Shown here piece by piece: positions 375-42,111 of a DNA stretch of 64,000 bases. Under the pieces are notes generated by a model. It was given only the letters and a program-made list of their open reading frames with translations. It had not been told where the DNA came from and searched no databases. Location: positions 1,054,001-1,118,000 of the forward strand of contig OZ037839.1 of NCBI GenBank assembly GCA_964035575.1, in the 5' to 3' direction. Within the stretch, counting starts at the first letter, position 1. Every line of letters starts with the position of its first letter. This DNA comes from Rhynchopus sp. YZ270_cl-10. Lineage: Eukaryota. The position numbers and the translations under genes were made by a program.

Positions 375-1530
375 TTATGCTGCCCCCAACTCTCCAAATC
401 CTCTTTTTGTTCCTCTTTTTTGTCCTCTTGTGCTTGCATCAATCCCTTCTCTCTCTTGTCCTGCTTTCAATGCAATACATTGTCTTGCACTTCCAGACAC
501 GTCTGTTCGTACTGCCTCAAAAGCTTCTATCCGCACATCTTCGAACTGTTCCGTAATAAACCTTGCGTAAATCTCACGCATACGTTCACGTAAGGTCCGC
601 TTGTCGTAGAGGGGTGGGTCTCCATTCGGGAGAGACAACATCTCGTTAATGTCAATGTTGCCTGGCAAGACGACTGTTGTGAATGCGTTGCAGTTGTGCA
701 GGAAGTCGTCCTCGATCTCTGTGTCCCTGCCAAAACCTGACATGTCCAGCGTGGTCAAGGATGTGCAATCTTGCAGGAAACGTTTATCAATCCGACTAAC
801 ATTGCTCATTCCTGAGAAGTCTGCTGTTGTCAACGCGGAGCACTCTTGCAGCCAGCCGCGCTTAATGTGCATGATGCTGCGCAACACTGATAAATCAACT
901 GTTTGCAATGATGTGCAGTCAGAAAGAAACTCTGGCCCAATGGCTGCGACCCTGCCAAAAGCTGAAAGGTCGATACTACCCAGCGAGGTGCAGCTCCTCA
1001 GAAAGCCGCTACCTACCTTCGCAACTCTGTGCAGTGCTGGCAAGTCAATGGTTGCCAACGAGGTGCAGTTCTGGAGGAAGCCTCTCTCAATGTGTGTGAT
1101 TCTGCGCCATCCTGAGATGTCAATCCTTTCCAACGACTTGCAGTCGCAAACAAAAGCTGCACCAACCTTCGTCACACTCGTCATATGGGATAAGTCAAGC
1201 TCTGTGACGCCACTTCCTGCGAGGAACCTGTTCCCTATCACCGTCACAGTGAACCCTGACACGTCAAGGCTTGTCAACGATGTGCAGTAAGAGAGACAGC
1301 CATACCCGATGTGCGTAACGTTGCACAATCCCGACAAGTCAACAGTTTCCACCGACGTACACTCGGAGAGGAAGCCGTCCTTAATTCGTGTCACACCAGA
1401 CACAGCAGAGAGATCAAGTCTCGTAAACGATGCTCCCCACAGGAAGTAGTCCGGAATAACAGTCGCAACCTCCGCCTGAAGAAGCAGAGAAGCCACCTCA
1501 GGATCCTTCACAGTCGCCAACCTCGCTTCG
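375..1530 (-). pseudogene. Ubiquitin-like/LRR gene copy 1, 3' (LRR) half, separated from its 5' half (19892-20169) by retroelements A and B
   Basis: 24-aa BspA-like repeats (IxxxFLxxCTSLxxxDLS), collinear with intact paralogs 21233-22726 and 40546-42111; homology stops at 1530 after EARL. Confidence 0.9.
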
Positions 1531-1981
1531 ATAAACGTTTTTAAAAATAGGATGGAGCACCCCGGTCCGAAAAGGAATGCAGCCACCCCTGGCTTCAGGC
1601 TCGCGAACCCAGCGTTGATGTAACACAGGGTTTCACGGGCCAAAAACCAGAAAGAAAAATGAAAAATTGAGGGTTCAACGACTGCGCCAACTGGTCTCAT
1701 GCGACGTTGAACCAACTTAAAATCTAGAATCTTGTGTCAACTTGTAAAGAAAAGCAATGAATATTAAAAGTTACCGGTTTCAGGCGTGGTGTACACGTCT
1801 GCTGCCATCTACGCTGGGATAGCAGTCCGGCTTGAACTTGGGGTCCAACAACAGTGCCAAGTGGACTTATGCGTCGCTGTGTCAACTGAAAAACAATGAA
1901 AAACAAGAATGTCGTTGAGGAAGATTGAAATGCATGAAAAAAACAAATGCATGAAAAAAACAAGAAGAACAAGGTAAATCT

Positions 1982-2578
1982 CTACAGAGGGTGCTGTCCT
2001 AGCTTGTCCTCTTTCGTTGTCTCGCCCACACTAAGCTTCTCAACGGCCGTGCAGGCGAGCTTTGTGGCGTTCACGTTGTTACTGCTGTCGATGTGCACCA
2101 ACGTGATGCTTCGGGTCGCTCTCAGCTTGTCAAGCTCACCCCGCGCCTCTTTCTGGAGGTGGGCGACTGCCGCGTATGGTCTGCAGTGCTCGTTCACCTG
2201 GTCAACCACGGTTCTACTGGATCCGTAGATGTTCAGTGGTGGGGTGTCTGTGTCGCTCTTCAGGTATTCGAGGCACATCAGCAGTCCTTCATACTCCGCG
2301 ACGTTCAGGGGTGTGTCCGCCAGGCGACTACTGGCTGTCCACCGCACCTCGCCGTCTATCTCGAGGCGTGCTCCAGCGCCCGATCCCTGGCAAGTGTTTT
2401 TCTTCACCCTCGCCCCCGGCTGCCTCACGTTGCAGTATCCGCCGAAGAAGATGCGAGTGTGTCCGGTGGGTTTCTTAGGCTTGCGTCGATCCTGCTTCTG
2501 CTGCTTCTGCTCAGCAGCCAAACGGATGTGCTTCGCAATTCTGTTCGCTCTCTCCTGTTTGCAGTCCTCTTCTAGGCA
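1982..2578 (-). CDS. C-terminal RNase H-fold domain of the retroelement ORF, predicted catalytically inactive
   Basis: RNase HI-like pattern IFFGG..PG..GAGA..NVAEYEGL..LNIYGSS..VVDQV..HI...N..ATKLA; in frame with the RT ORF once MITE 2581-3408 and one TA are removed. Confidence 0.8.
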   Translation of the reverse strand, partial: CLEEDCKQERANRIAKHIRLAAEQKQQKQDRRKPKKPTGHTRIFFGGYCNVRQPGARVKKNTCQGSGAGARLEIDGEVRWTASSRLADTPLNVAEYEGLLMCLEYLKSDTDTPPLNIYGSSRTVVDQVNEHCRPYAAVAHLQKEARGELDKLRATRSITLVHIDSSNNVNATKLACTAVEKLSVGETTKEDKLGQHPL

Positions 2579-2580
2579 TA

Positions 2581-3408
2581 CTGTGCAGGCGAGCCGTTTT
2601 TAGGCGAGTTTTTCGTTTTCCTGATTTTCAGGAAAAACTCGCCAAAAACTCGCCCTACTCGCCCATTACTCGCCTATTACTCGCCAAAACTCGCCAAAAA
2701 CTCGCCAAAACTCGCCTAAACTCGCCTAAACTCGCCTAAACTCGCCAAAAACTCGCCTAAACTCGCCCCAATTTGGGTGCAAATCCTGGTGCACATACGC
2801 ACCTTGGGGGTGAAAATGTGCACCAGGATGTGAAAATGGAGGGCGGGGGTGACTGATGACAACATGCCACTCGAAAACACACAAAAAAATTGAAATTGTG
2901 TCACTTGTACGTCTAAAGGCAACCATGTCACGGCAGTGGCTGACAGGCATGTATGTAAACATTTGCTCCAGGGGAAGATCCAGGCGTGCCATAGATCCCG
3001 GGGGACAAGACGTGCTACAATCCGGAGGATGACGAAGACATGAGCCGGGGCTACACTCGCTATACAACAATGTCCTCGCCATGCCGGTAAATGGCAACCC
3101 TGCAGGCCACCCCCACGACTACATCGCACCCATCTGTGCAAGCTTCATGGATCCGCAGAAGCTACAGCTGGACTGGTGGTACTGGTTGTGGAAGCCTACA
3201 AAGCAAACTGTAGAGGTCTTGTTCAAGTGGAACGAAAAAAATTTTCTCTTCAAAACTCAAATTTCCCTCATATTTTCGTGTGTACACTTTTCCCAAGGTA
3301 AAATCCCTACCAAAAAAAAAAAACTCGCCAAAACTCGCCCCCCAAAAATAGGCGAGTTTTAGGCGAGTTTTTGGCGAGTAGGCGAGTTTTTTTTACTCGC
3401 CCGCACAG
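2581..3408. mobile_element. MITE with TA target duplication (Tc1/mariner-like signature) inserted in the RT ORF
   Basis: TIRs CTGTGCAGGCGAG / CTCGCCCGCACAG; TA at 2579-2580 and 3409-3410; subterminal AAACTCGCC repeats. Confidence 0.88.
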
Positions 3409-6400
3409 TATGTCTAGGGGTGGGAGCTCTGTGTTCGTCCAGGATTTGTTTCCGTTGCAGAGGGTTGGCAGGGACCGGATCGTCTTGAGCACCTCAGCTG
3501 GTTCGGTGAGGATGGGTCGTCTCGTGATCGCTAGGGTTCCCCACTTGATGCCTAGGTCTAATGGGGCGAACACTTTGCTCTTGGGGTAGATGGTGCCCGA
3601 GAAGAGGTACGCGTTTGCTGCCACTATCTTTGCCTTAGCCATCCAGTTGCTGAACCAGGTGATTTTGTCGGTGATCATGGAGCTCTCTCGGGAATTGGGT
3701 TCCTCTGTGGTGAGCTTTGCTCCTGTGTGCGCTTCGAAGTCCAGCGCCAGCTCCAGGTGCGAGACGTGCTGTGATTTCCCATTGGACACCGTCGGCCACT
3801 TTAGGCTTTCCAGCCACTCCTTGAGTGCGAGGTATCCTTCCGCTTTGTACGGCCACGCGTCTGGCACCTCGTCAGGAAGTACTCCTATGTAGGTCTCGTA
3901 TGGGCCTTCTGGTTCCCATGTCCAGGGAAAATTGTCCATTTGGCTCGTCTTCGTTGTAGTGGTACCGCGTTTTCTCTTGTCCTCCCTCTCTAGGGCGATG
4001 TCTGAGTACATGAGAAGCAGCAGCTCTAGGGCTTCTCTGTTCGGCACTTCCGGAATCATCTGGAAGCCGGCGGGGAGAATGGCGTTGAGGCGCAGGCATT
4101 TCGGCCAGCTTTCTCTTACTGCTGGATCGGACACTCCTGCGTATTTGTGCTGTTCGCGTATGTGTGCGGTGTGGCTGCATTGTTCCCACATGTGTTCAAA
4201 GTCCTCCACACCTGTGCCGCAGTGCTCGCACGTGTCACTGGTGCTCATCTTCATTCTTTTGCGCCTGTCCTGTGTGAGCTCCGCTCCTGCAAGAATGTTC
4301 CTCATGTACCCTGCACGCAGTGGATCTGTGTTCTTGTAGCTGTTCCACACGGCGTTGATCGTGCGATAATCGATGCCATCTTTAACCCCTTGCATGTCCT
4401 CCCTCCTTGTCTCGAGTCTACGGCAAAAATCGTCCCTGATACCGTCTCGGAGTTGGTGTCGAAGAAGGTCACCCTCGGGTTCGTCGAGGTTCATCTGTGT
4501 TGTGTGCGGGGGCAGTAGGGTGTTGTTCTCCCAGCGCCAGTTCATGGATTGGGTGGTGCGGAGGAGGATGTCTACCGGTCCACAGTATTTTACTCTCGAC
4601 GTCCGCTTCAGGATACGGATCTCGTCTATTAGGGTTCTAATCTCCTGGTTCTTCCCCATGGTGTAGAGCGCGAGCAGGCGTTGGTACTTGAGGTAGGATG
4701 TTGGGTCTGTCCGGTGTAGCGGGTTCAGCACTCCCCTCACTATTTCACTGCATCTGCTAGGTAGGCCCCTCCAAATTGCCGCCGTCACTGCTTTGGTGAG
4801 CCTTCCAGCGGTGGTGGACAGCGGCTCGTACGTCTCGCAGCCGTAGAGTGCCATGGGCATTATTTTTGTCGCCACCAGTTCGGCTCTGCCTTCAAAGGGG
4901 ACGTTGAGGTGAGGGATACGTCGCGCACATGTCTCAGCTTTGCGCACTCGCTTGTCCAGCTTTGTCGCTGCTTCCTTTTTCTTGGCTACGGCCAGTCTGA
5001 TCACTGCGCCGAGATTGTCCAGTTCCTTCTTCTCCTGTCTCAGCTGGGTGTCTCCGAGCATGAGCTCCAGCTTTTCGGTCTTGGCTGTCGAGAAGGAGAA
5101 ACTACTTCCGTACGTGAGGTCAGTCTTGGTGGCGAAGTCGTGGGACACTGTGAGGCCTTTCCTCAATTGTACGGTGTTGTTCGAGGTCATGGTGGTGTCG
5201 TCCGCGTACAGGCTTGTCCGACATCTGGTTTCCGTCCGAACCGCCGCCTCCCACACTGCTAGGAGGGCGTTCAGCAGGATAATGCTCAGCGCACATCCCT
5301 GCAGAATGCCATTGTTCGCTTTGAACTCCTCACCGACCGTACCGTATAGTTTGAACCGCCTCTTCAGGTCCCTGTACATGCTCTTGAGGGGCCGCGTGAT
5401 CTTCATGTCGATCCCCATTTTCTCCACAAGACTGAAGGTTATGTCCCACGGTATGGTGTCGAAGCATTTCTTAATGTCCAGAAATACTCCTCGCAGCGTG
5501 TTCCCCGACACCATTGCTTTTTCGACCAGGAGTGCGGTGAGGTAGAAAGCGTCACGTGTTCCGTGCCCAGTCCTGAAGCCGTGCATGGATTCCGGTGCCC
5601 ATGTCTCTTGCCACACCATCAGGCTCGTCAACCTTGTCTTTGCCCATAGCCGATATACCGCCGACATCACGGAAATTGGTCGGTGGTCGAGTGGTTGTGG
5701 GTTCTCCACCTTGGCGATCATGCTCACGGTCGCGTGGAGGAGAGCTTCTGGCCATACGCCCGTCTCTTCTACTTGGTTGAGGATTGATGCCAGCCTGTCG
5801 AAGATCCCCGTTGGGAGAAGCGCAAGTTCTTCTGGGTGCCATCCGTCTGTGCTGGGGGCCTTGCCCTTCGGCATGCTCTCGGCCACGGCTTTCAGCATCC
5901 TTCCGGTGAGGGGTTCTACGTGCATCGGCCGTTGAGGTATGTGTGTGCCAAACCTTTCCTCGAACGCTTCCCACGTGGGTGTGTCACTCAGGGTGTTGTG
6001 CTTTTGGAGTATGGGAAGCCATGCCTCACGCAACCACGTGTCCATGTCCTCCACATTCGCGGTCTCTTCCGTCCCGCGCTTCATCGTGTTGCACCGCACT
6101 TTGGCTCCGTTGAGGCGCTTGTAGATGAGCCCTGGTGTGGTGTGCCATTGCGTGCGTATCATGCGGTATCTTTGCGTGGCCCTGTCCCTCTCCAGGTTCT
6201 TTCTGGCAGTTTCGAGTCTCTGGTGCAGGCGCTGTATCAGCTCCAGTGTCGTGCTGGCCTGCGGCTCCTCCTCTGGGGTAGCGTCGAGAATGCTCACCAG
6301 CCCTGCCTTCGCTTTGTCCCACGCCTTGCGTGCGCTGGGTGTGAGGGCTCCTTTGGTGCGTAGAGTGTTGCCGACCTCAGTTAGTCTGCGGATCGTCTTC

Positions 6401-6702
6401 CGGATGCGCGTCATCTTGAGGGTCTCTCCTGCGTCGCCTTCGCGAGACTGTCTGCTGCACAGCCAGGTGCGTCGAAGTTTGGGTGGTCGGCCTTTGCGGA
6501 AACATGCTGCTGAGTTGTCGTCTCCCTGCCGTGCCCAGAAGTTGGTCGCATCCTCATTCCATGCTTTCCACTTGTCCTCTACCAATGTGCTTGCGTGCCA
6601 TTGTGCTTTGGAACCATCGCAGATCTCTTCAGCCTCCTTTTCCAGGTCTGCCTTCGTTTTCTTCCTGCTCAGGTCATCCTGTTGTAGCATAGGGGGCCTT
6701 TC
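3409..6702 (-). CDS. Non-LTR reverse transcriptase with CCHC zinc finger (5'-truncated ORF)
   Basis: Motifs KAPSTDG, HRPISV, FLDIKKCFDTI, GILQGCALS, LYADD; CEHCGTGVEDFEHMWEQC; no endonuclease domain seen in the retained part. Confidence 0.95.
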
Positions 6703-7302
6703 CAGTCGCCAACCTCGCTTCGGTAAACGTTTTTTAAAAATAGGATGGAGCACCCCGGTCCGAAAAGGAATGCAGCCACCCCTGGCTTCAGGCTCGCGAA
6801 CCCAGTATTGCAGTAACACTGGGTCTCACGGGCCAAAAACCGAACAAAGAAAAGGAAAATGTTTGGGTTCAGCGACAGCGCCAATGGGCTGACGCGAGGC
6901 TGAACCAACTTAAAATAAAATAACACTCAATCCCAAATTTTTGTCCAAACTGGGTATTTTTTAAAATAAAGAACAACTATTCAAAACCGTAAAATTCTTG
7001 CTTTAATTGATTTTTCTGGTAAAACCTATGAACACGCAAAAAAAATCGACCAGATTCGTTGAGTGACTAAAACCCAATCACCCATAGAGAGAGAGACCCA
7101 AAACGGTGATTTTCCCTGTAATTCCTTAAGGAATTGCCTTTGCCATTTGAAAAAATATTATGACCGCAAAAATGGCAACATGTAATCTGTGATGCTCAAA
7201 AGTGCAAAATTCTTGCTCCAATGGATTCTCCGGGTATATATTGTACCTGGAGAATATGCTCATATCACTCTTCAGACCATCTGGGGTATGGTCACACACA
7301 GG

Positions 7303-8078
7303 TAGTATACACAGTATACACAGTATACACAGTATACACAGTATACACAGTATACACAGTATACACAGTATACACAGTATACACAGTATACACAGTATAC
7401 ACAGTATACACAGTATACACAGTATACACAGTATACACAGTATACACAGTATACACAGTATACACAGTATACACAGTATACACAGTATACACAGTATACA
7501 CAGTATACACAGTATACACAGTATACACAGTATACACAGTATACACAGTATACACAGTATACACAGTATACACAGTATACACAGTATACACAGTATACAC
7601 AGTATACACAGTATACACAGTATACACAGTATACACAGTATACACAGTATACACAGTATACACAGTATACACAGTATACACAGTATACACAGTATACACA
7701 GTATACACAGTATACACAGTATACACAGTATACACAGTATACACAGTATACACAGTATACACAGTATACACAGTATACACAGTATACACAGTATACACAG
7801 TATACACAGTATACACAGTATACACAGTATACACAGTATACACAGTATACACAGTATACACAGTATACACAGTATACACAGTATACACAGTATACACAGT
7901 ATACACAGTATACACAGTATACACAGTATACACAGTATACACAGTATACACAGTATACACAGTATACACAGTATACACAGTATACACAGTATACACAGTA
8001 TACACAGTATACACAGTATACACAGTATACACAGTATACACAGTATACACAGTATACACAGTATACACAGTATACACA
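7303..8078. repeat. (AGTATACAC)n 9-bp tandem repeat
   Basis: Pure tandem array read directly. Confidence 0.98.
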
Positions 8079-8101
8079 GGGGATTGGGAGTACAGTATAC
8101 T

Positions 8102-8887
8102 GTACAGTACAGTACAGTACAGTACAGTACAGTACAGTACAGTACAGTACAGTACAGTACAGTACAGTACAGTACAGTACAGTACAGTACAGTACAGTAC
8201 AGTACAGTACAGTACAGTACAGTACAGTACAGTACAGTACAGTACAGTACAGTACAGTACAGTACAGTACAGTACAGTACAGTACAGTACAGTACAGTAC
8301 AGTACAGTACAGTACAGTACAGTACAGTACAGTACAGTACAGTACAGTACAGTACAGTACAGTACAGTACAGTACAGTACAGTACAGTACAGTACAGTAC
8401 AGTACAGTACAGTACAGTACAGTACAGTACAGTACAGTACAGTACAGTACAGTACAGTACAGTACAGTACAGTACAGTACAGTACAGTACAGTACAGTAC
8501 AGTACAGTACAGTACAGTACAGTACAGTACAGTACAGTACAGTACAGTACAGTACAGTACAGTACAGTACAGTACAGTACAGTACAGTACAGTACAGTAC
8601 AGTACAGTACAGTACAGTACAGTACAGTACAGTACAGTACAGTACAGTACAGTACAGTACAGTACAGTACAGTACAGTACAGTACAGTACAGTACAGTAC
8701 AGTACAGTACAGTACAGTACAGTACAGTACAGTACAGTACAGTACAGTACAGTACAGTACAGTACAGTACAGTACAGTACAGTACAGTACAGTACAGTAC
8801 AGTACAGTACAGTACAGTACAGTACAGTACAGTACAGTACAGTACAGTACAGTACAGTACAGTACAGTACAGTACAGTACAGTACAG
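8102..8887. repeat. (AGTAC)n microsatellite
   Basis: Pure tandem array read directly. Confidence 0.98.
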
Positions 8888-9692
8888 TGCGATTCACATA
8901 TCAGACAAGATCTCGTTAGGCGTATACTTCTGGGCCTCGTTCACTTCATAAACCACAGATGCAATTTTTTGAGCCTACGACCCCACATTTAACTCATTTC
9001 GATCCGCTGATTTCAATCCCAAAAAATATTTCAAAAAAATATTTCTGGTGTGGCACCTTAACCGATTCTCCGTGGTTCTACCCGTTGTCCCTCCGTAAAG
9101 GGGGGGTATGGATGTTGGAAAACAGGCCTTCATATGCACCTTCGGTACAACGTCGCAGGCAGGCCAAACAGCGTTTTGAATTTGTTGTTTGTGAGCTACC
9201 CGCATGTGGAAGGCCCACTTCTCAGAATTCACGACATTTTTTCTCGACCCGATTGGTGGAGTACATATTTGTTATCACCCCCTGGTTACCCTACTGACAC
9301 ATTTTCAAAAGAATCGGCGTTAAAGAAAATCAGAATGCTCGATGTTCACGCGTGGGATAGTTTTTCACGAGTATAAAGTACGGTGTGAACAGCTCATGTA
9401 TTGGTGCACTCTCTCTGATCTCTTTGACCGGACATATGTGCAACACATGCACTCCTCCTCGCGTGTGCAGTTGATGAAGCTGTTGCAAGCGTCTTATCCA
9501 TTGCAGTCTCAAGAGAAATACGTCTGACAGCAGACGAGTTCGGGGCCGGACATCCACTCAAATGCAGGACATGTCTCTAATGTCCTAATCCTGTGCACCA
9601 AGCACCACCCCAGGCGCTTCGCGGCAAAGGGCAGGCTTAGCCCAGCCCTTAGCCGCGAAGCGACTGGGGGGTCTGGGGGGCGGAGCCCCCCA

Positions 9693-12600
9693 GCGAAATT
9701 TTTTGACTTAACACTGCTTGTGCTTAGAAAACCCGAATTTTTTACCCTTCAAAATTGCATTTGAGGAACTCACAACGCGTCAAAACGAAAAGGTCGTTTT
9801 TGGCACTTTTAAAACCGGGCTCCGCTGAGTTCACCATATTTTTGCTCGATTTATTTAGTGGAGTAACTAATTAGTAATCGTATTCTCGGACAAAAATTCG
9901 GGACGAGGTGTTAGATAATTCCCCTGTATTTTACTAAGGGAAAATCCCTAGTAAAATACAGGCAAAAATCCAGGTAAAAATCACTTTGTCTCGATTTTTT
10001 AGTAAAAATACAGGGTGCAACGAAACCAGAAAAAAACTTCGCCATTGGACGTTTCTGGGTTCCGAGCTTTTAACGCAAAAAAAATCTATTTTTTTTTCGC
10101 GAAATTTTTTGACTTAACACTGCTTGTGCTTAGAAAACCCGAATTTTTTACCCTTCAAAATTGCATTTGAGGAACTCACAACGCGTCAAAACGAAAAGGT
10201 CGTTTTTGGCACTTTTAAAACCGGGCTCCGCTGAGTTCACCATATTTTTGCTCGATTTATTTAGTGGAGTAACTAATTAGTAATCGTATTCTCGGACAAA
10301 AATTCGGGACGAGGTGTTAGATAATTCCCCTGTATTTTACTAAGGGAAAATCCCTAGTAAAATACAGGCAAAAATCCAGGTAAAAATCACTTTGTCTCGA
10401 TTTTTTAGTAAAAATACAGGGTGCAACGAAACCAGAAAAAAACTTCGCCATTGGACGTTTCTGGGTTCCGAGCTTTTAACGCAAAAAAAATCTATTTTTT
10501 TTTCGCGAAATTTTTTGACTTAACACTGCTTGTGCTTAGAAAACCCGAATTTTTTACCCTTCAAAATTGCATTTGAGGAACTCACAACGCGTCAAAACGA
10601 AAAGGTCGTTTTTGGCACTTTTAAAACCGGGCTCCGCTGAGTTCACCATATTTTTGCTCGATTTATTTAGTGGAGTAACTAATTAGTAATCGTATTCTCG
10701 GACAAAAATTCGGGACGAGGTGTTAGATAATTCCCCTGTATTTTACTAAGGGAAAATCCCTAGTAAAATACAGGCAAAAATCCAGGTAAAAATCACTTTG
10801 TCTCGATTTTTTAGTAAAAATACAGGGTGCAACGAAACCAGAAAAAAACTTCGCCATTGGACGTTTCTGGGTTCCGAGCTTTTAACGCAAAAAAAATCTA
10901 TTTTTTTTTCGCGAAATTTTTTGACTTAACACTGCTTGTGCTTAGAAAACCCGAATTTTTTACCCTTCAAAATTGCATTTGAGGAACTCACAACGCGTCA
11001 AAACGAAAAGGTCGTTTTTGGCACTTTTAAAACCGGGCTCCGCTGAGTTCACCATATTTTTGCTCGATTTATTTAGTGGAGTAACTAATTAGTAATCGTA
11101 TTCTCGGACAAAAATTCGGGACGAGGTGTTAGATAATTCCCCTGTATTTTACTAAGGGAAAATCCCTAGTAAAATACAGGCAAAAATCCAGGTAAAAATC
11201 ACTTTGTCTCGATTTTTTAGTAAAAATACAGGGTGCAACGAAACCAGAAAAAAACTTCGCCATTGGACGTTTCTGGGTTCCGAGCTTTTAACGCAAAAAA
11301 AATCTATTTTTTTTTCGCGAAATTTTTTGACTTAACACTGCTTGTGCTTAGAAAACCCGAATTTTTTACCCTTCAAAATTGCATTTGAGGAACTCACAAC
11401 GCGTCAAAACGAAAAGGTCGTTTTTGGCACTTTTAAAACCGGGCTCCGCTGAGTTCACCATATTTTTGCTCGATTTATTTAGTGGAGTAACTAATTAGTA
11501 ATCGTATTCTCGGACAAAAATTCGGGACGAGGTGTTAGATAATTCCCCTGTATTTTACTAAGGGAAAATCCCTAGTAAAATACAGGCAAAAATCCAGGTA
11601 AAAATCACTTTGTCTCGATTTTTTAGTAAAAATACAGGGTGCAACGAAACCAGAAAAAAACTTCGCCATTGGACGTTTCTGGGTTCCGAGCTTTTAACGC
11701 AAAAAAAATCTATTTTTTTTTCGCGAAATTTTTTGACTTAACACTGCTTGTGCTTAGAAAACCCGAATTTTTTACCCTTCAAAATTGCATTTGAGGAACT
11801 CACAACGCGTCAAAACGAAAAGGTCGTTTTTGGCACTTTTAAAACCGGGCTCCGCTGAGTTCACCATATTTTTGCTCGATTTATTTAGTGGAGTAACTAA
11901 TTAGTAATCGTATTCTCGGACAAAAATTCGGGACGAGGTGTTAGATAATTCCCCTGTATTTTACTAAGGGAAAATCCCTAGTAAAATACAGGCAAAAATC
12001 CAGGTAAAAATCACTTTGTCTCGATTTTTTAGTAAAAATACAGGGTGCAACGAAACCAGAAAAAAACTTCGCCATTGGACGTTTCTGGGTTCCGAGCTTT
12101 TAACGCAAAAAAAATCTATTTTTTTTTCGCGAAATTTTTTGACTTAACACTGCTTGTGCTTAGAAAACCCGAATTTTTTACCCTTCAAAATTGCATTTGA
12201 GGAACTCACAACGCGTCAAAACGAAAAGGTCGTTTTTGGCACTTTTAAAACCGGGCTCCGCTGAGTTCACCATATTTTTGCTCGATTTATTTAGTGGAGT
12301 AACTAATTAGTAATCGTATTCTCGGACAAAAATTCGGGACGAGGTGTTAGATAATTCCCCTGTATTTTACTAAGGGAAAATCCCTAGTAAAATACAGGCA
12401 AAAATCCAGGTAAAAATCACTTTGTCTCGATTTTTTAGTAAAAATACAGGGTGCAACGAAACCAGAAAAAAACTTCGCCATTGGACGTTTCTGGGTTCCG
12501 AGCTTTTAACGCAAAAAAAATCTATTTTTTTTTCGCGAAATTTTTTGACTTAACACTGCTTGTGCTTAGAAAACCCGAATTTTTTACCCTTCAAAATTGC

Positions 12601-17218: not shown

Positions 17219-17384
17219 TAAAAGATCTTGTATCAACTTGAAAAGGAAAAGCAATGAACAGCAACAGAGCCATTTGGGCTTACGCGTCGCTATAGTAACT
17301 GAAAAACAATGTTTTAAAAACAAGAATGTCGTTGACCAAGATTGAAATACACGAAAAAGGTAAAATACTAAGAATTGCCTCATA

Positions 17385-19800: not shown

Positions 19801-19822
19801 GTTGTTCTTCTTTTTCTTCTTG

Positions 19823-19890
19823 TTCCGAGTCTTTGCCGCAGTCCACTGCGTTGCCCGGGGTCACCTCGTGGAGGTGCTCGGTAAAACCCC
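19823..19890 (-). ncRNA. Predicted HDV-like self-cleaving ribozyme at the 5' end of element B
   Basis: GGGGUU-UUA-CCGAGC-ACC-UCCACGA-GGU-GACCCC-GG-GCAA-CGCAG-UGGA-CUGCG-GCAAA-GACUCGG fits P1/P2/P3/L3/P1.1/P4/J4-2; predicted cleavage site 1 nt from the TSD. Confidence 0.8.
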
Positions 19891-19891
19891 T

Positions 19892-20169
19892 GTCGCCAAC
19901 CTCGCTTCGGAAATGTCTGTCTCACCCAAGGCACGAAGTGCCTCAACAGATGCGTACTTAGTAGTTTTCGTCAACACGACTGTGTCTCCAGCACTCAGTT
20001 CTGTGATGTCCTCTCCTTCCTCCTTCCCTCCGAAGCCCATGCGGAAGCTGTCTTCGCCCAACCCTGTTGCAGACGCCACCTTCTGCCGCATCGTCTCCGT
20101 TGTGTCGTTCTCACCCACCTCAATCACGTATTTGGTGTCATCATCATATCCCTGCACACACAGTTCCAT
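19892..20169 (-). pseudogene. Ubiquitin-like/LRR gene copy 1, 5' (ubiquitin-like) half
   Basis: MELCVQGY...IEVGENDTTETMRQKVASATGL...FRMGFGGK...GDTVVL...EARLAT, as in intact paralogs. Confidence 0.9.
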
Positions 20170-26226: not shown

Positions 26227-27294
26227 TTATGCTGCCCCCAACTCTCCAAATCCTCTTTTTGTTCCTCTTTTTTGTCCTCTTGTGCTTGCATCAATCCCTT
26301 CTCTCTCTTGTCCTGCTTTCAATGCAATACATTGTCTTGCACTTCCAGACACGTCTGTTTGTACTGCCTCAAAAGCTTCTATCCGCACACCTCTGAACTG
26401 TTCCGCAAACCTTGCGTAAATCTCACGCACACGTACATAGAAGGCCTCCTTGTAGGTGCTCATTCTTGGGTCTCCATTCGGGAGAGACAACATCTCGTCA
26501 ATGTCGATGTTGCCTGGCAAGACGACTGTTGTGAGTGCGTTGCAGTTGATCAGGAAGTTGCGCTGCTGGATCTCTGTGTCCCTGCCAAAACCTGACATGT
26601 CCAGCGTGGTCAAGGATGTGCAATCTTGCAGGAAACAACTATCAATCAGCGTAACATTGCTCATTCCTGAGAAGTTTGCTGTTGTCAACGCGGAACACCC
26701 TTGCAGCCAGTTTTGCTCAATGTGTATGATGCTGCGCAACACTGATAAATCAACTGTTTTCAATGATGTGCACTTCCTAAGAAACTCTGACTCAATAAAT
26801 GCGACATTGCCAAAAGCTGAGAGGTCGATACTCTCCAGCGAGGTGCAGCTCTCAAGAAAGCCGTACTTTACCTTCACAACCCTGTGCAGTGCTGTCAAGT
26901 CAATCGTTTTCAACGAGGTGCAGGACGAACAAAACTGGTTCCCAATTTTCGTCACACTCGTCATCTCGGATAAGTCAAGATTTGTGACGCCACTTTGTGC
27001 GAGGAACGAGCTCCCTATCACCGTCACACCAGTGAACCCTGACACGTCAAGGCAGAGAGACAGCCATCCCCGATGTGCGTAACGTTGCACAATCCCGACA
27101 AGTCAACGGTTTCCACTGACCCACACCCGCGGAGGAAGTAGCGCTCAATTCGTGTCACACCAGACACAGCAGAGAGATCAAGTCTCGTAAACGATGCTTG
27201 CGCCAAGAAGTAGTCCGGAATAACAGTCGCAACCTCCGCCTGAAGAAGCAGAGAAGCCACCTCAGGATCCTTCACAGTCGCCAACCTCGCTTCG
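26227..27294 (-). pseudogene. Ubiquitin-like/LRR gene copy 4, 3' half (split by element C; frameshifting deletion near 27053)
   Basis: LRR homology spread over two frames (ORFs 26227-27090 and 27024-27284); about 19 nt missing relative to paralogs. Confidence 0.88.
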
Positions 27295-27654
27295 GTAAAC
27301 GTTTTTTAAAAATAGGATGGAGCACCCCGGTCCGAAAAGGAATGCAGCCACCCCTGGCTTCAGGCTCGCGAACCCAGTATTGCAGTAACACTGGGTCTCA
27401 CGGGCCAAAAACCGAACAAAGAAAAGTAAAATGTTTGGGTTCAGCGACAGCGCCAATGGGCTGACGCGAGGCTGAACCAACTTAAAATAAAATAAAAAAA
27501 TCTTGTATCAACTTGAAAAGGAAAAGCAATGAACAGCAACAGAGCCATTTGGGCTTACGCGTCGCTATAGTAACTGAAAAACAATGTTCTAAAAACAAGA
27601 ATGTCGTTGACCAAGATTGAAATACACGAAAAAGGTAAAATACTAAGAATTGCC

Positions 27655-30345
27655 TCATATTCCATGGGCATCGTTTCTGATGTTGTAGTTTGTCTGCTGA
27701 GTGATCACGCGCCCCCCCTACTAGGGAGGTCTTAGGTTCATGCTTCGGCTAGCACGTAAAAGCTACCATGTCGTCGAAGTTAGCGGTCCTCGTATTCCAT
27801 GAGGTCTTTCAGATGTTGTTGTTTGTCTGCTGAGTGATCACGCGCCCCCCCTACTAGGGAGGTCTTAGGTTCAGGCTTCGGCTTGCACGTAAAAGCTACC
27901 ATGTCGTCGAAGTTAGCGGTCCTCGTATTCCATGAGGTCTTTCAGATGTTGTTGTTTGTCTGCTGAGTGATCACGCGCCCCCCCTACTAGGGAGGTCTTA
28001 GGTTCAGGCTTCGGCTAGCACGTAAAAGCTACCATGTCGTCGAAGTTAGCGGTCCTCGTATTCCATGAGGCATTTCTGATGATGTAGTTTGTCTGCTGAG
28101 TGATCACGCGCCCCCCCTACTAGGGAGGTCTTAGGTTCATGCTTCGGCTTGCACGTAAAAGCTACCATGTCGTCGAAGTTAGCGGTCCTCGTATTCCATG
28201 AGGTCTTTCAGATGTTGTTGTTTGACTGCTGAGTGATCACGCGCCCCCCCTACTAGGGAGGTCTTAGGTTCAGGCTTCGGCTTGCACGTAAAGAACTACC
28301 ATGTAGTCGAAGTTAGCGGTCCTCGTATTCCATGAGGCATTTCTGATGATGTAGTTTGTCTGCTGAGTGATCACGCGCCCCCCCTACTAGGGAGGTCTTA
28401 GGTTCATGCTTCGGCTTGCACGTAAAGAACTACCATGTCGCCGAAGTTAGCGGTCCTCGTATTCCATGAGGTCTTTCAGATGTTGTTGTTTGTCTGCTGA
28501 GTGATCACGCGCCCCCCCTACTAGGGAGGTCTTAGGTTCGGGCTTCGGCTTGCACGTAAAAGCTACCATGTCGTCGAAGTTAGCGGTCCTCGTATTCCAT
28601 GAGGCATTTCTGATGATGTAGTTTGTCTGCTGAGTGATCACGCGCCCCCCCTACTAGGGAGGTCTTAGGTTCATGCTTCGGCTTGCACGTAAAGAACTAC
28701 CATGTCGCCGAAGTTAGCGGTCCTCGTATTCCATGAGGCATTTCTGATGATGTAGTTTGTCTGCTGAGTGATCACGCGCCCCCCCTACTAGGGAGGTCTT
28801 AGGTTCGGGCTTCGGCTTGCACGTAAAAGCTACCATGTCGTCGAAGTTAGCGGTCCTCGTATTCCATGAGGCATTTCTGATGATGTAGTTTGTCTGCTGA
28901 GTGATCACGCGCCCCCCCTACTAGGGAGGTCTTAGGTTCATGCTTCGGCTTGCACGTAAAGAACTACCATGTCGCCGAAGTTAGCGGTCCTCGTATTCCA
29001 TGAGGTCTTTCAGATGTTGTTGTTTGACTGCTGAGTGATCACGCGCCCCCCCTACTAGGGAGGTCTTAGGTTCGGGCTTCGGCTTGCACGTAAAAGCTAC
29101 CATGTCGCCGAAGTTAGCGGTCCTCGTATTCCATGAGGTCTTTCAGATGTTGTTGTTTGACTGCTGAGTGATCACGCGCCCCCCCTACTAGGGAGGTCTT
29201 AGGTTCATGCTTCGGCTAGCACGTAAAAGCTACCATGTCGTCGAAGTTAGCGGTCCTCGTATTCCATGAGGTCTTTCAGATGTTGTTGTTTGTCTGCTGA
29301 GTGATCACGCGCCCCCCCTACTAGGGAGGTCTTAGGTTCATGCTTCGGCTTGCACGTAAAAGCTACCATGTCGCCGAAGTTAGCGGTCCTCGTATTCCAT
29401 GAGGCATTTCTGATGATGTAGTTTGTCTGCTGAGTGATCACGCGCCCCCCCTACTAGGGAGGTCTTAGGTTCATGCTTCGGCTTGCACGTAAAAGCTACC
29501 ATGTCGTCGAAGCTAGCGGTCCTCGTATTCCATGAGGCATTTCTGATGATGTAGTTTGTCTGCTGAGTGATCACGCGCCCCCCCTACTAGGGAGGTCTTA
29601 GGTTCATGCTTCGGCTTGCACGTAAAAGCTACCATGTCGCCGAAGTTAGCGGTCCTCGTATTCCATGAGGCATTTCTGATGATGTAGTTTGTCTGCTGAG
29701 TGATCACGCGCCCCCCCTACTAGGGAGGTCTTAGGTTCATGCTTCGGCTTGCACGTAAAAGCTACCATGTCGCCGAAGTTAGCGGTCCTCGTATTCCATG
29801 AGGCATTTCTGATGATGTAGTTTGTCTGCTGAGTGATCACGCGCCCCCCCTACTAGGGAGGTCTTAGGTTCGGGCTTCGGCTTGCACGTAAAAGCTACCA
29901 TGTCGTCGAAGTTAGCGGTCCTCGTATTCCATGAGGTCTTTCAGATGTTGTTGTTTGACTGCTGAGTGATCACGCGCCCCCCCTACTAGGGAGGTCTTAG
30001 GTTCATGCTTCGGCTTGCACGTAAAAGCTACCATGTCGTCGAAGTTAGCGGTCCTCGTATTCCATGAGGCATTTCTGATGATGTAGTTTGTCTGCTGAGT
30101 GATCACGCGCCCCCCCTACTAGGGAGGTCTTAGGTTCATGCTTCGGCTTGCACGTAAAAGCTACCATGTCGTCGAAGTTAGCGGTCCTCGTATTCCATGA
30201 GGTCTTTCAGATGTTGTTGTTTGACTGCTGAGTGATCACGCGCCCCCCCTACTAGGGAGGTCTTGGGTTCAGGCTTCGGCTAGCACGTAAAAAGCTACCA
30301 TGTCGCGAAGTTAGCGGTCCTCGTATTCCATGAGGCACTTCAGAT
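27655..30345. repeat. About 133-bp tandem repeat (about 20 units) in retroelement C
   Basis: Same unit as 17385-19800 with a different order of variants. Confidence 0.96.
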
Positions 30346-30367
30346 GTTGTTCTTCTTTTTCTTCTTG

Positions 30368-30435
30368 TTCCGAGTCTTTGCCGCAGTCCACTGCGTTGCC
30401 CGGGGTCACCTCGTGGAGGTGCTCGGTAAAACCCC
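30368..30435 (-). ncRNA. Predicted HDV-like ribozyme at the 5' end of element C
   Basis: Same sequence as 19823-19890; abuts the TSD with one extra G. Confidence 0.8.
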
Positions 30436-30436
30436 C

Positions 30437-30714
30437 GTCGCCAACCTCGCTTCGGAAATGTCTGTCTCACCCAAGGCACGAAGTTCCTCAACAGATTGGT
30501 ACTTGGTAGTTTTCGCCAACACGACTGTGTCTCCAGCACTCAGTTCTGTGATGTCCTCTCCTTCCTCCTTCCCTCCGAAGCCCATGCGGAAGCTGTCTTC
30601 GCACAACCCTGTTGCAGACGCCACCTTCTGCCGCATCGTCTCCGTTGTGTCGTTCTCACCCACCTCAATCACGAATTTGTTTTCATCATCATATCCCTGC
30701 ACACACAGTTCCAT
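30437..30714 (-). pseudogene. Ubiquitin-like/LRR gene copy 4, 5' half
   Basis: MELCVQGY...EARLAT, then element C. Confidence 0.9.
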
Positions 30715-38035: not shown

Positions 38036-39281
38036 TCAAAACCCTTCTCTCTCTTGTCCTGCTTTCAATGCAATACATTGTCTTGCACTTCCAGACACGT
38101 CTGTTCGTACTGCCTCAAAAGCTTCTATCCGCACATCCCCGAACTGTTCCGTAAACCTTGCGTAAATGTCACGCACACGTACATAGAAGGCCTCCTTGTA
38201 GGTGCTCATTCTAGGGTCTCCATTCGGGAGAGACAACATCTCGTCAATGCCGATGTTGCCTGGCAAGACGACTGTTGTGAGTGCGTTGCAGTTGAGCAGG
38301 AAGTCGTCCTGGATCCCTGTGTCCCTGCCAAAACCTGACATGTCCAGCGTCGTCAAGGATGTGCAATCTCGCAGGAAACCACGATCAATCTGCGTAACAT
38401 TGCTCAGTCCTGAGAAGTCTGCTGTTGTCAACGCGGAGCACCCTTGCAACCAGTCGCGCTTAATGTGTGTGATAGTGAGCAACTTTGATAAATCAACTGT
38501 TTTCAATGATGAGCACTGAAAAATAAATTTGTGCCCGATGTCTGCGACATTGCCAAAAGCTGAAAGGTCGATACTTCCCAGCGAGGTGCAGCTCGTAAGA
38601 AATTCGTCGCCCACCTTCACAACTCTGTGCAGTGCTGTCAAATCAATCGTTTCCAACGAGGTGCAGCCCGAACAAAAGTCGCTACGAAGTTCCGTCACAT
38701 TCGTCATCCCTGAAAAGCTGATGGTGGTCAACGACTTGCAGTTGGAGAGAAAGTTGGATCCGATCTTCGTGACACTGCAAAAAGCTGACAAATCAATGGT
38801 TGCCAACGAGGTGCAGTTCCAGAGGAAGCCGTCCTCAATGTGTGTGATTCTGCGCCATCCTGAGATGTCAATCCTTTCCAACGACTCGCAGTAGGCAAGA
38901 AAGTATGCACCAACCTTCGTCACACTCGTCATATGGGATAAGTCAAGATTTGTGACGCCAGTTCCTGCGAGGAACGAGCTCCCTATCACCGTCACACCAG
39001 TGAACCCTGACACGTCAAGGCTTGTCAACGATTTGCAGCTATGGAGACAGTTATGCCCAATGTACGTAACGTTGCACAATCCCGACAAGTCAACGGTTTC
39101 CAGCGACTCACACGCGGAGAGGAATCCGATCTCAATTCGTGTCACACCAGACACAGCAGAGAGATCAAGTCTCGTAAACGATGCTCCCCACAAGAACCCA
39201 TCCGGAATAACAGTCGCAACCTCCGCCTGAAGAAGCAGAGAAGCCACCTCAGGATCCTTCACAGTCGCCAACCTCGCTTCG
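38036..39281 (-). pseudogene. Ubiquitin-like/LRR gene copy 5, 3' half (frame still open; split by element D)
   Basis: Collinear with paralogs up to the target site at 39281. Confidence 0.88.
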
Positions 39282-39884
39282 TAAACGTTTTTAAAAATAG
39301 GATGGAACACCCCGTTCCGAAGAGGAATGCAGCCACCCCGAAAAAGTGGGGGGTGTGTCGCCAGTCTGCGGTGAGAAACTCCTCCCTGAGTCAAAACTGC
39401 CGCTGGTTAGCGCTGGCTAAGGTTCCCTTTTCACCCGGTCACAATCGAGTCTCGCTCCGTCGGCGTTGACTGCACTGCAAAGCCCCTTGGTCCACCGTCG
39501 TAAAAGACACCACAAAAAGCGTAGGTAGGTGGGGGACCGGCAGGTTACAGACAGAGGCAGTACGGAGCTAAGGTGTCGGCGGTCGCGGGTTACCGTGGAG
39601 GCCTGCCCCCCGTGGAGGTCTTGGGATCTGGGAGTTTTGTGGAAGTAATCGGCTCAGAGTACCCTGCATTCCATGCACGACTCGAGCTCCTTGTGGTAGG
39701 ATATTGGGGTCCAGGGAAGCACCCTTCGCCCCGAGGTCCCACCACCCCAGACAGTTTGTAGGTCTAAAAGCACAACGTACTTGTCCAGGACCTGGCCGCT
39801 CTTGGGTTCTCTCGAAAAAAAGATACTAATCCCGTACGCCCGTGCACCGCAAAAATGTGCTATGGGGGGCGGTCCGCCGTCGGG
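39282..39884 (-). mobile_element. Short SINE-like or truncated element D at the same target site
   Basis: 19-bp TSD AGTC(G/A)CCAACCTCGCTTCG at 39263-39281 and 39885-39903; visibly shares only the terminal about 60 nt with A-C. Confidence 0.88.
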
Positions 39885-40163
39885 AGTCACCAACCTCGCT
39901 TCGGAAATGTCTGTCTCACCCAAGGCACGAAGTGTTTCAACAGATGCGTACTTAGTAGTTTTCGTCAACACGACTGTGTCTCCAGCACTCAGTTCTGTGA
40001 TGTCCTCTCCTTCCTCCTTCCCTCCGAAGCCCATGCGGAAGCTGTCTTCGCACAACCCTGTTGCAGACGCCACCTTCTCCCGCATCGTCTCCGTTGTGTC
40101 GTTCTCACCCACCTCAATCACGTATTTGGTATCATCATCATATCCCTGCACACACAGTTGCAT
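39885..40163 (-). pseudogene. Ubiquitin-like/LRR gene copy 5, 5' half
   Basis: MQLCVQGY...EARLVT, then element D. Confidence 0.9.
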
Positions 40164-40545
40164 TGTTTCGAGTGACGTGTTGCTCTGTTGTGGGGTGGTG
40201 TTGAGAAGGACGAGGAGGGAGGCAAGATACAACAAAATAGCTTTCTTGTTTGTTTTTCACTTATCCTCACCCTGCCACATATGTGGAGTAGAAAAGACTT
40301 TGTGCTGACAGGTTGTTCATAAAAAGTGGTGGGGACACTCCGGTTTGTCAGAGTTGTGCACCAAACCTGCCAAATAATTTACCCCAGTTCAAAAGTGTAT
40401 CCAAAATTGCAGTTCAATAGGTTCACCGAAGTGTTCTTCACACAAAATCACCACACCCTCCAAATCCTCCTGCTTGCGTTGCTCCTGTTTGTCCTGCCCC
40501 AAACCCCCCAAACCCCTCTGTTCATCCAGCTTGTCCTGCTCCTGT

Positions 40546-42111
40546 TTATGCTGCCCCCAACTCTCCAAATCCTCTTTTTGTTCCTCTTTTTTGTCCTCTT
40601 GTGCTTGCATCAATCCCTTCTCTCTCTTGTCCTGCTTTCAATGCAATACATTGTCTTGCACTTCCAGACACGTCTGTTCGTACTGCCTCAAAAGCTTCTA
40701 TCCGCACATCTTCGAACTGTTCCGTAAACCTTGCGTAAATCTCACGCACACGTACATAGAAGGCCTCCTTGTAGGTGCTCATTCTAGGGTCTCCATTCGG
40801 GAGAGACAACATCTCGTCAATGCCGATGTTGCCTGGCAAGACGACTGTTGTGAGTGCGTTGCAGTTGAGCAGGAAGTCATCCTGGATCTCTGTGTCCCTG
40901 CCAAAACCTGACATGTCCAGCGTGGTCAAGGATGTGCAATCTTGCAGGAAACGTGGATCAATCTGCGTGACATTGCTCATTCCTGATAAGTCTGCTGTTG
41001 TCAACGCGGAACACCCTTCCATCCAGCAGTTCTCAATGCGAGTGATGCTGCGCAACACTGATAAATCAACTGTTTTCAATGATGTGCATTGCCTCAGAAA
41101 CCCTGACTCAATAGATGCGACATTGCCAAAAGCTGAAAGGTCGATACTACCCAGCGAGGTGCACCTCATGAGAAAGTCGTCTCCTACCTTCACAACCCTG
41201 TGCAGTGCTGTCAAGTCAATCGTTTCCAACGAGGTGCAGTCCGAACATAAGCCGTTCCCCAGTTCTGTCACATTGGTCATCCCTGAAAAGCTGATGGTGG
41301 TCAACGAGATGCAGTCGAAGAGAAAAAAGAAGCCGATCTTCGTGACACTGCAAAAAGCTGACAAATCAATGGTTGCCAACGAGCTGCAGTCCGAGAGGAA
41401 GTAGTTCTCAATGTGCGTGATTCTGCGCCATCCTGAGATGTCAATCCTTTTCAACGACTTGCAGCTGAGAACAAAGCTTGCACCAACCTTCGTCACACTC
41501 GTCATCGCGGATAAGTCAAGATTTGTGACACCACTTTCTTGGAGGAACGAGTGCCCTATCATCATCACACCAGTGAACCCTGACACGTCAAGGCTTGTCA
41601 ACGATGTGCAGCCAGAGAGACAGTCATGCCCGATGTGCGTAACGTTGCACAATCCCGACAAGTCAACGGTTTCCACCGACGCACACCTGTGGAGGAAGTT
41701 GTCCTCAATTCGTGTCACACCAGACACAGCAGAGAGATCAAGTCTCGTAAACGATGCTTCGTACAAGAACTCGTCAGGAATAACAGTCGCAACCTCCGCC
41801 TGAAGAAGCAGAGAAGCCACCTCAGGATCCTTCACAGTCACCAACCTCGCTTCGGAAATGTCTGTCTCACCCAAGGCACGAAGTGTTTCAACAGATTGGT
41901 ACTTCGTCGACTTCGTCAACACGACTGTGTCTCCAGCACTCAGTTCTGTGATGTCCTCTCCTTCCTCCTTCCCTCCGAAGCCCATGCGGAAGCTGTCTTC
42001 GCACAACCCTGTTGCAGACGCCACCTTCTGCCGCATCGTCTCCGTTGTGTCCTTCTCACCCACCTCAATCACGTATTTGTTTTCATCATATCCCTGCACA
42101 CACAGTTCCAT
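40546..42111 (-). CDS. Ubiquitin-like domain + BspA-type LRR protein (copy 6, intact)
   Basis: Open frame collinear with paralogs; empty target site around 41835-41860. Confidence 0.9.
   Translation of the reverse strand: MELCVQGYDENKYVIEVGEKDTTETMRQKVASATGLCEDSFRMGFGGKEEGEDITELSAGDTVVLTKSTKYQSVETLRALGETDISEARLVTVKDPEVASLLLQAEVATVIPDEFLYEASFTRLDLSAVSGVTRIEDNFLHRCASVETVDLSGLCNVTHIGHDCLSGCTSLTSLDVSGFTGVMMIGHSFLQESGVTNLDLSAMTSVTKVGASFVLSCKSLKRIDISGWRRITHIENYFLSDCSSLATIDLSAFCSVTKIGFFFLFDCISLTTISFSGMTNVTELGNGLCSDCTSLETIDLTALHRVVKVGDDFLMRCTSLGSIDLSAFGNVASIESGFLRQCTSLKTVDLSVLRSITRIENCWMEGCSALTTADLSGMSNVTQIDPRFLQDCTSLTTLDMSGFGRDTEIQDDFLLNCNALTTVVLPGNIGIDEMLSLPNGDPRMSTYKEAFYVRVREIYARFTEQFEDVRIEAFEAVRTDVSGSARQCIALKAGQEREGIDASTRGQKRGTKRGFGELGAA

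Follow-up and report, generated by a model that had tools for sequence, protein, structure and literature searches.

In plant nucleotide-binding leucine-rich repeat receptors (NLRs) and lamprey variable lymphocyte receptors (VLRs), positively selected residues occupy fixed positions of the leucine-rich repeats (LRRs) on a conserved scaffold, with sequence exchange, and the variable face is the xLxLx strand. Here we describe a family of genes that join a ubiquitin-like domain (Ubl) to LRRs, together with the long interspersed nuclear element (LINE) that inserts into them, in a 64,000-nucleotide stretch of Rhynchopus sp. YZ270_cl-10 (assembly GCA_964035575.1, contig OZ037839.1, positions 1,054,001 to 1,118,000 of the forward strand; hereafter the window). 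The minus strand of the window carries eight related genes, six of a long type (copies F, E, C, D, B and A) and two shorter ones, and the Ubl-LRR genes are intronless. Replacement changes at five positions of each repeat occur at about 16-20 times the silent rate, and the LINE and its short interspersed (SINE) partners insert site-specifically at one linker codon in several subfamilies. We consider it fairly probable, though some way from settled, that the family is an intracellular repertoire of binders diversified by conflict with fast-changing ligands, addressed by their tails and sharing the Ubl as a common output handle.

The repeats belong to the BspA/TpLRR class, and the closest described systems each cover one part of this locus. 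Known BspA-like families reach 911 entries in Trichomonas vaginalis and 124-298 in Entamoeba (PMC2843621); they share with the present family the LRR_5 repeats, expansion on a large scale within one lineage, copies both in tandem and scattered, pseudogenes and, in Entamoeba, CAAX tails. Unlike the present family they were interpreted as surface or secreted parasite adhesins, and they differ from it in the N-terminal Ubl, the nuclear-type tails, a ratio of replacement to silent rates (omega) of about 19 and the site-specific LINE found here; that paper does not contain "ubiquitin" and has "positive selection" in a reference only. The family would work like an immune LRR repertoire, yet it is not one of NLRs, Toll-like receptors or VLRs: it shares with NLRs and VLRs the positively selected residues at fixed repeat positions, whereas its xLxLx strand is conserved and a loop varies, NB-ARC, NACHT and TIR domains are absent from the proteins scanned, and there is no sign of somatic assembly. 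A young repertoire in which unequal crossing over adds and removes repeats is also found in the LRR genes of Tetrahymena with 90-bp exons, where a LINE-like element, REP, favors LRR genes; REP enters introns beside the repeats and the genes stay functional, whereas here one coding position is hit and the gene is broken (PMC6564038, in whose text "positive selection" is absent). The FNIP/FGxxFN LRRs of Dictyostelium and giant viruses likewise form large repertoires, in which variation peaks at the two residues flanking conserved aromatics, but they are of another repeat class, have no Ubl, and no targeting retroelement is described for them in the text drawn on (PMC9525666).

For the insertions, the nearest precedent is the trypanosome retrotransposon hot spot (RHS) genes with their ingi/RIME and L1Tc/NARTc elements, in which a multigene coding family also has one insertion site in its 5' coding part, LINE and SINE partners use it, and one or more elements lie between the gene halves (PMC7563717). 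The L1Tc/ingi clade has a 5' ribozyme resembling that of hepatitis delta virus (HDV) (PMC4035085), for which the element here has a candidate counterpart. The locus differs in that its target is a Ubl-LRR gene without the ATP/GTP-binding RHS domain, that the duplications are 19-21 bp, and that the LINE carries ubiquitin-like and OTU domains and an RNase H after the zinc finger. Sequence-specific insertion, tandem copies and an N-terminal protease of ubiquitin/SUMO type (Ulp1-like) recur in NeSL and Utopia-1_TSP, and duplications of about 20 bp in some target-specific non-LTR elements; NeSL and Utopia-1_TSP cut with a restriction-like endonuclease, whereas the LINE here has APE, and the targets listed for such elements are rRNA, spliced leader, tRNA and snRNA genes, transposons, microsatellites and telomeres (PMC4640811). 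An APE-type LINE that chooses one codon of a protein-coding family is rare, RHS being the precedent found, and an APE that recognizes a short, defined target sequence would merit interest by itself. Both halves of the locus, a protist LRR repertoire and an RHS-type hot spot, are of known kinds, while the pairing of ubiquitin-system components on both sides is unusual. No literature on this Ubl-LRR family or its LINE was found in a search that excluded subscription journals and supplements, and the main text of the Diplonema genome paper (PMC10161547) contains none of the terms "LRR", "BspA" and "ubiquitin".

To describe variation within the repeats, we counted offsets from the F of the motif I-x-x-x-F-L-x-x-C-x in each 25-residue repeat. 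Variation is concentrated at offsets -2, -1, +2, +3 and +5. At the 65 codons with these offsets, pairwise differences at codon positions 1, 2 and 3 are 0.41, 0.40 and 0.17, compared with 0.046, 0.040 and 0.060 in the remaining 291 codons; the six long copies have about 3.0-3.2 distinct residues at -2, -1, +2 and +3, 2.0 at +5, and 1.0-1.2 at strand and core positions. The five offsets had been picked from the window data and were hence re-checked outside the window: in 69 nearest-neighbor pairs from other subfamilies, the same five were the most variable (0.59-0.79). We also compared contigs from four public runs with copies E and F. Among the 40 of 575 rows listed, 18 of the 24 differences within the LRR part of copy F fell at variable codons, and that these contigs differ mainly at the same codons speaks against an assembly artefact.

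Codon models were fitted with our own Python implementation to the six long copies over 356 codons, with the divergent C-terminal stretch excluded and copy C gapped. Model M2a assigned an omega of 19.0 to 15% of the codons, with a likelihood ratio test (LRT) statistic of 252 against M1a, and the M7/M8 and M8a/M8 comparisons gave 253 and 252. When double and triple changes were allowed, omega was 16.3 and the LRT 121; a star tree gave an omega of 20, the intact copies alone 30 and the disrupted copies alone 22. Among the 36 sites with a posterior above 0.95, 31 lie on the five offsets. Recombination is present as well: an incompatibility test restricted to 30 informative sites of the scaffold gave p=0.006. 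A tract of 33 polymorphic sites is also common to copies B and A (p=0.0045, for one of 15 pairs, uncorrected). For comparison, 14 data sets were generated without positive selection, and in 13 of them recombination was built in as 12-120 segments with random trees. Across these sets, the LRT ranged from 2.6 to 38, omega did not exceed 5.6, and third positions were the most divergent in every set; the real data show the reverse order, with 0.111, 0.104 and 0.081 at codon positions 1, 2 and 3. Selection and recombination therefore co-occur and are not alternatives, and recombination alone cannot yield the pattern.

A different account would dispense with selection and invoke a targeted mutational or templated process, such as a diversity-generating retroelement (DGR), hypermutation or conversion confined to the scaffold. 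Many of the changes are indeed multi-base within one codon, there is a reverse transcriptase (RT) within the locus, recombination occurs, and in a model without multi-hit terms the silent rate of the fast class rises 3.3-fold. This last value counts against our rejection of a class in which silent and replacement rates are raised together (LRT 36, or 28 with multi-hits), the rejection by which we excluded a mutation hot spot or regional hypermutation. A test on silent third positions that needs no tree agrees with the models. Between variable codons that differ at positions 1-2, the silent C/T base differs in 12 of 223 pairs (which are not independent), compared with 71 of 1869 elsewhere and with 28% at saturation. 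Silent positions in the variable codons are thus at background, so that these codons are neither old sites left on a scaffold homogenized around them, which we consequently ruled out, nor a mutation hot spot. Adenine-specific DGR mutagenesis was rejected on the grounds that 188 invariant columns are A and that A is the majority in only 48 of 207 variable columns, which are therefore not A-rich; nor does a DGR-type RT lie beside the target, the RT there being that of a non-LTR element with APE, a zinc finger and RNase H. Finally, only one of 66 five-residue cassettes is nearer to another repeat than to its own, and cassette borrowing between different repeats is rare. A mutational origin is in our judgment largely refuted and very improbable, and we retain diversifying selection on a binder repertoire.

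A preliminary description of positions 375 to 42,111 had claimed that the LRR paralogs are hypervariable at fixed positions on a near-invariant scaffold, and had ascribed this to strong diversifying selection or patchwork gene conversion on one binding surface. All 12 of the motifs it quoted are present in the six minus-strand copies, and the codon differences and the other-subfamily pairs agree on the hypervariability. Diversifying selection is indeed strong: dN/dS at the offsets in the six window copies is well above 1, with omega at 16-20 on about 15% of codons and an LRT far beyond the simulated maximum, with or without multi-hits; patchwork exchange accompanies this selection and does not replace it. 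The scaffold calls for a correction: it is young rather than strongly constrained, with pS at 0.068, omega at 0.46 for the core and 0.67 for all other codons, and constraint moderate. As for the single surface, repeat register and secondary structure support it, and it would differ from the beta-strand face that classical immune LRRs use. In the model of copy F, DSSP assigns the five offsets to coil; on one side of them the short second strand covers -5 and -4, and on the other the main strand runs from about +8 to +11. Offsets +6 to +16, which comprise the xLxLx strand, are conserved (pN 0.033). Since equal offsets stack in a solenoid, the five are likely to form one ladder. The curvature of TpLRR domains is reportedly flipped, with the irregular segment on the concave side. 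The variation points to a candidate binding surface of BspA-type LRRs that is distinct from the classical strand.

The repeats match the BspA-type family LRR_5 (PF13306) with 105.7 bits against a cut-off of 27.7 in a Pfam scan, and the N-terminus gives a weak Pfam match to ubiquitin. An AlphaFold model of copy F (pLDDT 88.9) has a beta-grasp domain at residues 1-67, three helices, 13 repeats and a cap, with two short strands per repeat (DSSP). In a Foldseek search the closest solved structures were bacterial BspA-like LRRs, namely 4FS7 (TM 0.66 on the target, root-mean-square deviation (rmsd) 2.9), 4GT6 and 4H09. The N-terminal part of the model matches ubiquitin with Z 10.8 and an rmsd of 1.5 across 66 residues, the match spanning residues 1-74, and a fold search placed it near proteasome- and p97-linked UBLs. 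Pfam scans of four window copies found no UBA domain, and NB-ARC, NACHT and TIR were found neither in these four copies nor among the precomputed domains of the 120 listed family matches. In the ESM Atlas, clusters pair ubiquitin with DUF285 repeats, a parallel Ubl plus BspA-like design (scores below 0.9, leads only).

This architecture could alternatively be read as that of variable substrate adaptors, comparable to F-box proteins, that serve the cell's own proteolysis or trafficking and diverge by sub-functionalization rather than conflict. The combination of a Ubl with LRRs resembles adaptor layouts, there are several address tags, and the Ubl fold matches those linked to the proteasome and p97; an omega of about 19, the loss of half of the local copies and a high turnover nevertheless suit conflict better than stable self substrates, and we regard adaptors of this kind as unlikely.

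To place the window copies in their family, we searched with copy F. Of 7995 candidates that were scored, 1211 proteins reached E<=0.001, and the best 120 of these were analyzed. These come from European Nucleotide Archive contigs of about 35 different lengths, with the window's own contig included, and presumably belong to a single genome; all comparisons across the family were made on such database proteins. The layout of Ubl, linker and LRRs was found in 119 of these best 120 matches, and their 650 matched repeats contain 614 distinct five-residue cassettes. The tails of 119 paralogs, classified by our own pattern rules on automatic open reading frame (ORF) ends that may be wrong, comprise 38 resembling nuclear localization signals (NLS), 25 CaaX tails (such as CVCM and CSVS), one hydrophobic tail and 55 others. 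No signal peptide was apparent by inspection, the conserved region beginning at the Met of the Ubl.

These tails bear on whether the proteins are instead surface or feeding-apparatus adhesins, the classical BspA role, diversified for recognition of prey, substrate or self and non-self. In bacteria and Trichomonas, repeats of BspA type act as adhesins on the cell surface, an Entamoeba BspA protein that bears CAAX is exposed there too (PMC2843621), and 25 of 119 paralogs here end in CaaX. Yet the conserved protein starts at the Ubl without a signal peptide visible by eye, 38 of the 119 tails look nuclear, and only one of 119 passed the hydrophobic-tail filter, which makes an adhesin role improbable and leaves the intracellular repertoire as our preferred reading.

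The same genes are also the target of insertion. Of the six copies in the preliminary description, three (F, D and B) are intact; it missed that the other three (E, C and A) are split by retroelements. The features are as follows, all on the minus strand.
40546..42111, minus strand: copy F, intact, 521 aa, with the Ubl at 1-67, a linker of three helices, 13 TpLRR repeats and, after the C-terminal cap, a basic tail.
39885..40163, minus strand: 5' half of copy E, with Ubl and linker up to the target codon; its final 19 nt are the first copy of the target-site duplication.
39282..39884, minus strand: SINE-like insert in copy E, about 600 bp; only its final ~55 bp are common with the LINE, and it matches no Rfam family.
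38036..39281, minus strand: 3' half of copy E, with the second duplication copy and 13 repeats; frame open.
30437..30714, minus strand: 5' half of copy C, with the 19-nt target duplication at its end.
27296..30436, minus strand: non-autonomous LINE derivative in copy C, with the LINE 5' end, a 133-bp tandem array (27653-30350) and the LINE 3' untranslated region (UTR).
30368..30435, minus strand: putative HDV-like ribozyme at the 5' end of the copy C element, matching Rfam RF02682.
26227..27295, minus strand: 3' half of copy C, with a 19-nt frameshifting deletion; three repeats missing, register kept.
24388..25893, minus strand: copy D, intact, 501 aa, 13 repeats.
21233..22726, minus strand: copy B, intact, 497 aa, 12 repeats.
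19892..20169, minus strand: 5' half of copy A, with the target duplication at its end.
6724..19891, minus strand: first insert of copy A, a non-autonomous LINE derivative with a 133-bp array (17404-19806) and a nested unrelated block (~6924-17219).
6703..6723, minus strand: middle copy of the LRR-gene target, between the two tandem inserts of copy A.
1531..6702, minus strand: second insert of copy A, a 5'-truncated LINE, split by a miniature inverted-repeat transposable element (MITE) at 2572-3417.
375..1530, minus strand: 3' half of copy A, 11 repeats.
46672..47673, minus strand: copy G, second subfamily, intact, 333 aa; outside the range of the preliminary description.
48319..49245, minus strand: copy H, second subfamily, intact, 308 aa.

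Whole repeats have been lost in register from B (one), A (two) and C (three), and copy G, with its near-identical 75-nt repeats, varies at the same offsets as the long-type copies.

Copies E, C and A are all interrupted at one linker codon, near residue 92, by LINE or SINE elements. On both sides of each insert lies a duplication, 19-21 bp long, of sequence from the gene itself, all inserts end in a common tail of about 55 bp, and copy A holds two tandem inserts with a third copy of the target in between. These duplications and the common tail rule out introns as the cause of the three interruptions. As in RHS-type hot spots, we thus found an element with APE and RT and target-site duplications, independent insertions at one site, tandem copies and non-autonomous partners. 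The pattern extends beyond the window. Among 85 short family ORFs, 29 end before position 145 without LRRs (longer ORFs and one internal deletion left out), and nine of these 29, one being copy A of the window, end at residue 92; five of the nine run into the E-type SINE by tblastn, three more run into SINE or LINE 5' sequence by direct reading, and one has no assigned continuation. All four readable LINE 5' junctions (P0165, P0170, P0171 and P0174, among 15 listed of 19 members) lie at the target codon. The intact paralogs closest to the broken genes belong to at least five subfamilies, NLS and CaaX types included. In public runs, a contig of X6 connects the element tail, the LRR target and the start of the SINE, and in X9 a contig connects the tail with this codon in a different paralog. 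By analogy with ingi/RIME in RHS genes, the LINE would exploit a multicopy, redundant family, and most likely uses the Ubl-LRR genes as a safe landing site.

Two further observations concern the breakpoints. A second cluster lies at residues 68-75 (P0355, P0360, P0399, P0404, P0407, P0408, P0410, P0411 and P0413), often following Lys-Val or Lys-Gly, and is probably an intron in some paralogs, or else a second insertion site. In P0174 and P0170, insertion at the target codon fuses the host Ubl in frame to a full-length or truncated LINE polyprotein.

The LINE family has 19 members, with copies 98-99.8% identical, and encodes OTU, APE, RT, a zinc finger and an RNase H-like end. Its ORF1 opens with a ubiquitin-like domain that ends in LRGG (Pfam E 1.7e-9), and its OTU domain (E 1.4e-7) has the Cys and His motifs and is a predicted deubiquitinase. 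In the second insert of copy A, RT and zinc finger lie at 3307-6690 and the RNase H-like part at 1985-2575, followed by the 3' UTR. The inserts in copy C and copy A that keep the LINE 5' end are internally deleted derivatives. The candidate ribozyme in copy C matches the whole RF02682 model at E=8.7e-6 with 37.7 bits, below the gathering score of 44, at which Rfam finds nothing in the window; direct reading shows the same ribozyme sequence at the start of the copy A insert (~19823-19890). The 133-bp array matches no known RNA family, and the E-type SINE has no Rfam match and folds no better than shuffles. The RT of the window has named relatives in Diplonema papillatum and in a transcriptome labelled 'Rhum' at 28-36% identity, from which a diplonemid host is likely, and related LINEs with OTU occur in Diplonema papillatum and another genome (P0130, P0123, P0147). 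P0123, an OTU-APE-RT-RNase H LINE related to this one, belongs to a cluster of 14 members, 11 of them on one 3.49-Mb contig, which suggests a tandem or clustered target in what is possibly another genome. Within ORF2 of the LINE, the MITE at 2572-3417 has 22-nt terminal inverted repeats starting with CTAG and internal AAAACTCGCC repeats. The nested block in the first copy A insert (6924-17219, 10.3 kb) has imperfect terminal inverted ends and contains an 18.5-copy, 100% identical 406-bp array with a palindrome, as well as back-to-back 9-bp and 5-bp microsatellites; it is likely a DNA transposon derivative.

With ubiquitin-system parts on target and element alike, a direct conflict between the two becomes testable. 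The Ubl-LRR proteins might restrict the LINE itself, which would counter with its OTU domain, a ubiquitin decoy and knockout through separation of Ubl and LRRs. The element does encode both an LRGG-ending ubiquitin-like domain and an OTU, its insertion point divides Ubl from LRR, 38 of 119 paralogs have nuclear-signal-like tails, and for the RHS genes of trypanosomes a role in controlling their retroelements has been proposed (PMC7563717). Against such an arms race, OTU is present in the related LINEs P0130, P0123 and P0147 too, OTU and ubiquitin may just process the element's own polyprotein, copies that are 98-99.8% identical are too uniform to drive 614 cassettes, and insertion into multicopy targets is a widespread way for elements to persist (PMC4640811); we find it quite unlikely. 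A wider proposal is that a free-living euglenozoan encodes in its germline hundreds of Ubl-TpLRR immune receptors that act inside the cell, in nucleus, cytosol and at membranes, and send the foreign proteins they recognize to degradation, while the LINE, with a ubiquitin and a deubiquitinase of its own, counters them both biochemically and by insertions that split Ubl from LRR. This also strikes us as unlikely; if true, it would give a retrotransposon whose target site is its host's immune-receptor family.

We therefore return to the intracellular binder repertoire. The Ubl-LRR genes duplicate, and whole repeats are exchanged or lost; on this reading, the five positions, stacked in one ladder, would form the binding surface. 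The repeats would bind fast-changing proteins of invaders, be these symbionts, viruses or mobile elements; alternative tails (nuclear-signal-like, CaaX or none) may direct the same sensor to nucleus, membranes or cytosol; and the Ubl, by way of some surface that is not the Ile44 patch, may deliver what is bound to a partner in degradation or signalling. To the question of how single-celled eukaryotes recognize intracellular invaders, the family brings a concrete and testable candidate. It combines a single scaffold with five positions that vary in each repeat, replacement rates close to 20 times the silent one, and address tags that can be exchanged.

Several observations weigh against it. In the model, the variation sits in a loop segment, off the xLxLx strand of classical LRR receptors. 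Pfam scans of the four window copies found no signalling or effector domain. At the position of ubiquitin Ile44 the family Ubl has Gly (61%) or Ser (30%), and no terminal Gly-Gly was found in it, the domain continuing into a helix; it is therefore an integral domain, probably not bound by the usual ubiquitin receptors. The Ubl plus LRR design given in the preliminary description is accordingly upheld as a beta-grasp fold, while the coupling to ubiquitin machinery suggested there stays conjectural. One Entamoeba BspA protein with CAAX is surface-exposed (PMC2843621), so a CaaX tail is no proof of an intracellular face. The codon tests use six sequences and an implementation of our own, and with recombination alone 11 of the 14 simulations went beyond the nominal 5% threshold, so that nominal p values are inflated. 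Lastly, tails with 90-95% identity occur on several long contigs between flanks that differ (agreement 0.5-0.6), and targeting is thus not exclusive across all tail-bearing elements.

The window also holds features that are separate from the family and its LINE. A single 1675-aa ORF at 32368-37395 (minus strand) has an N-terminus that is predicted to be signal-like and, with E 0.05 as the threshold, matches no Pfam family; its 5' 416 bp recur at 23473-23888. The 621-aa ORF at 43062-44927 (minus strand) has a hydrophobic N-terminal half and no Pfam match; its C-terminal part has, by eye, what we take to be a nucleotide-cyclase-like fold. Long paired microsatellites (GTACAC beside GGTACTG, among others) recur with common flanks at 55696-58866, 53147-54018 and 63675-64000, and positions 61659-62255 have, by eye and without Pfam support, the look of a transposase fragment.

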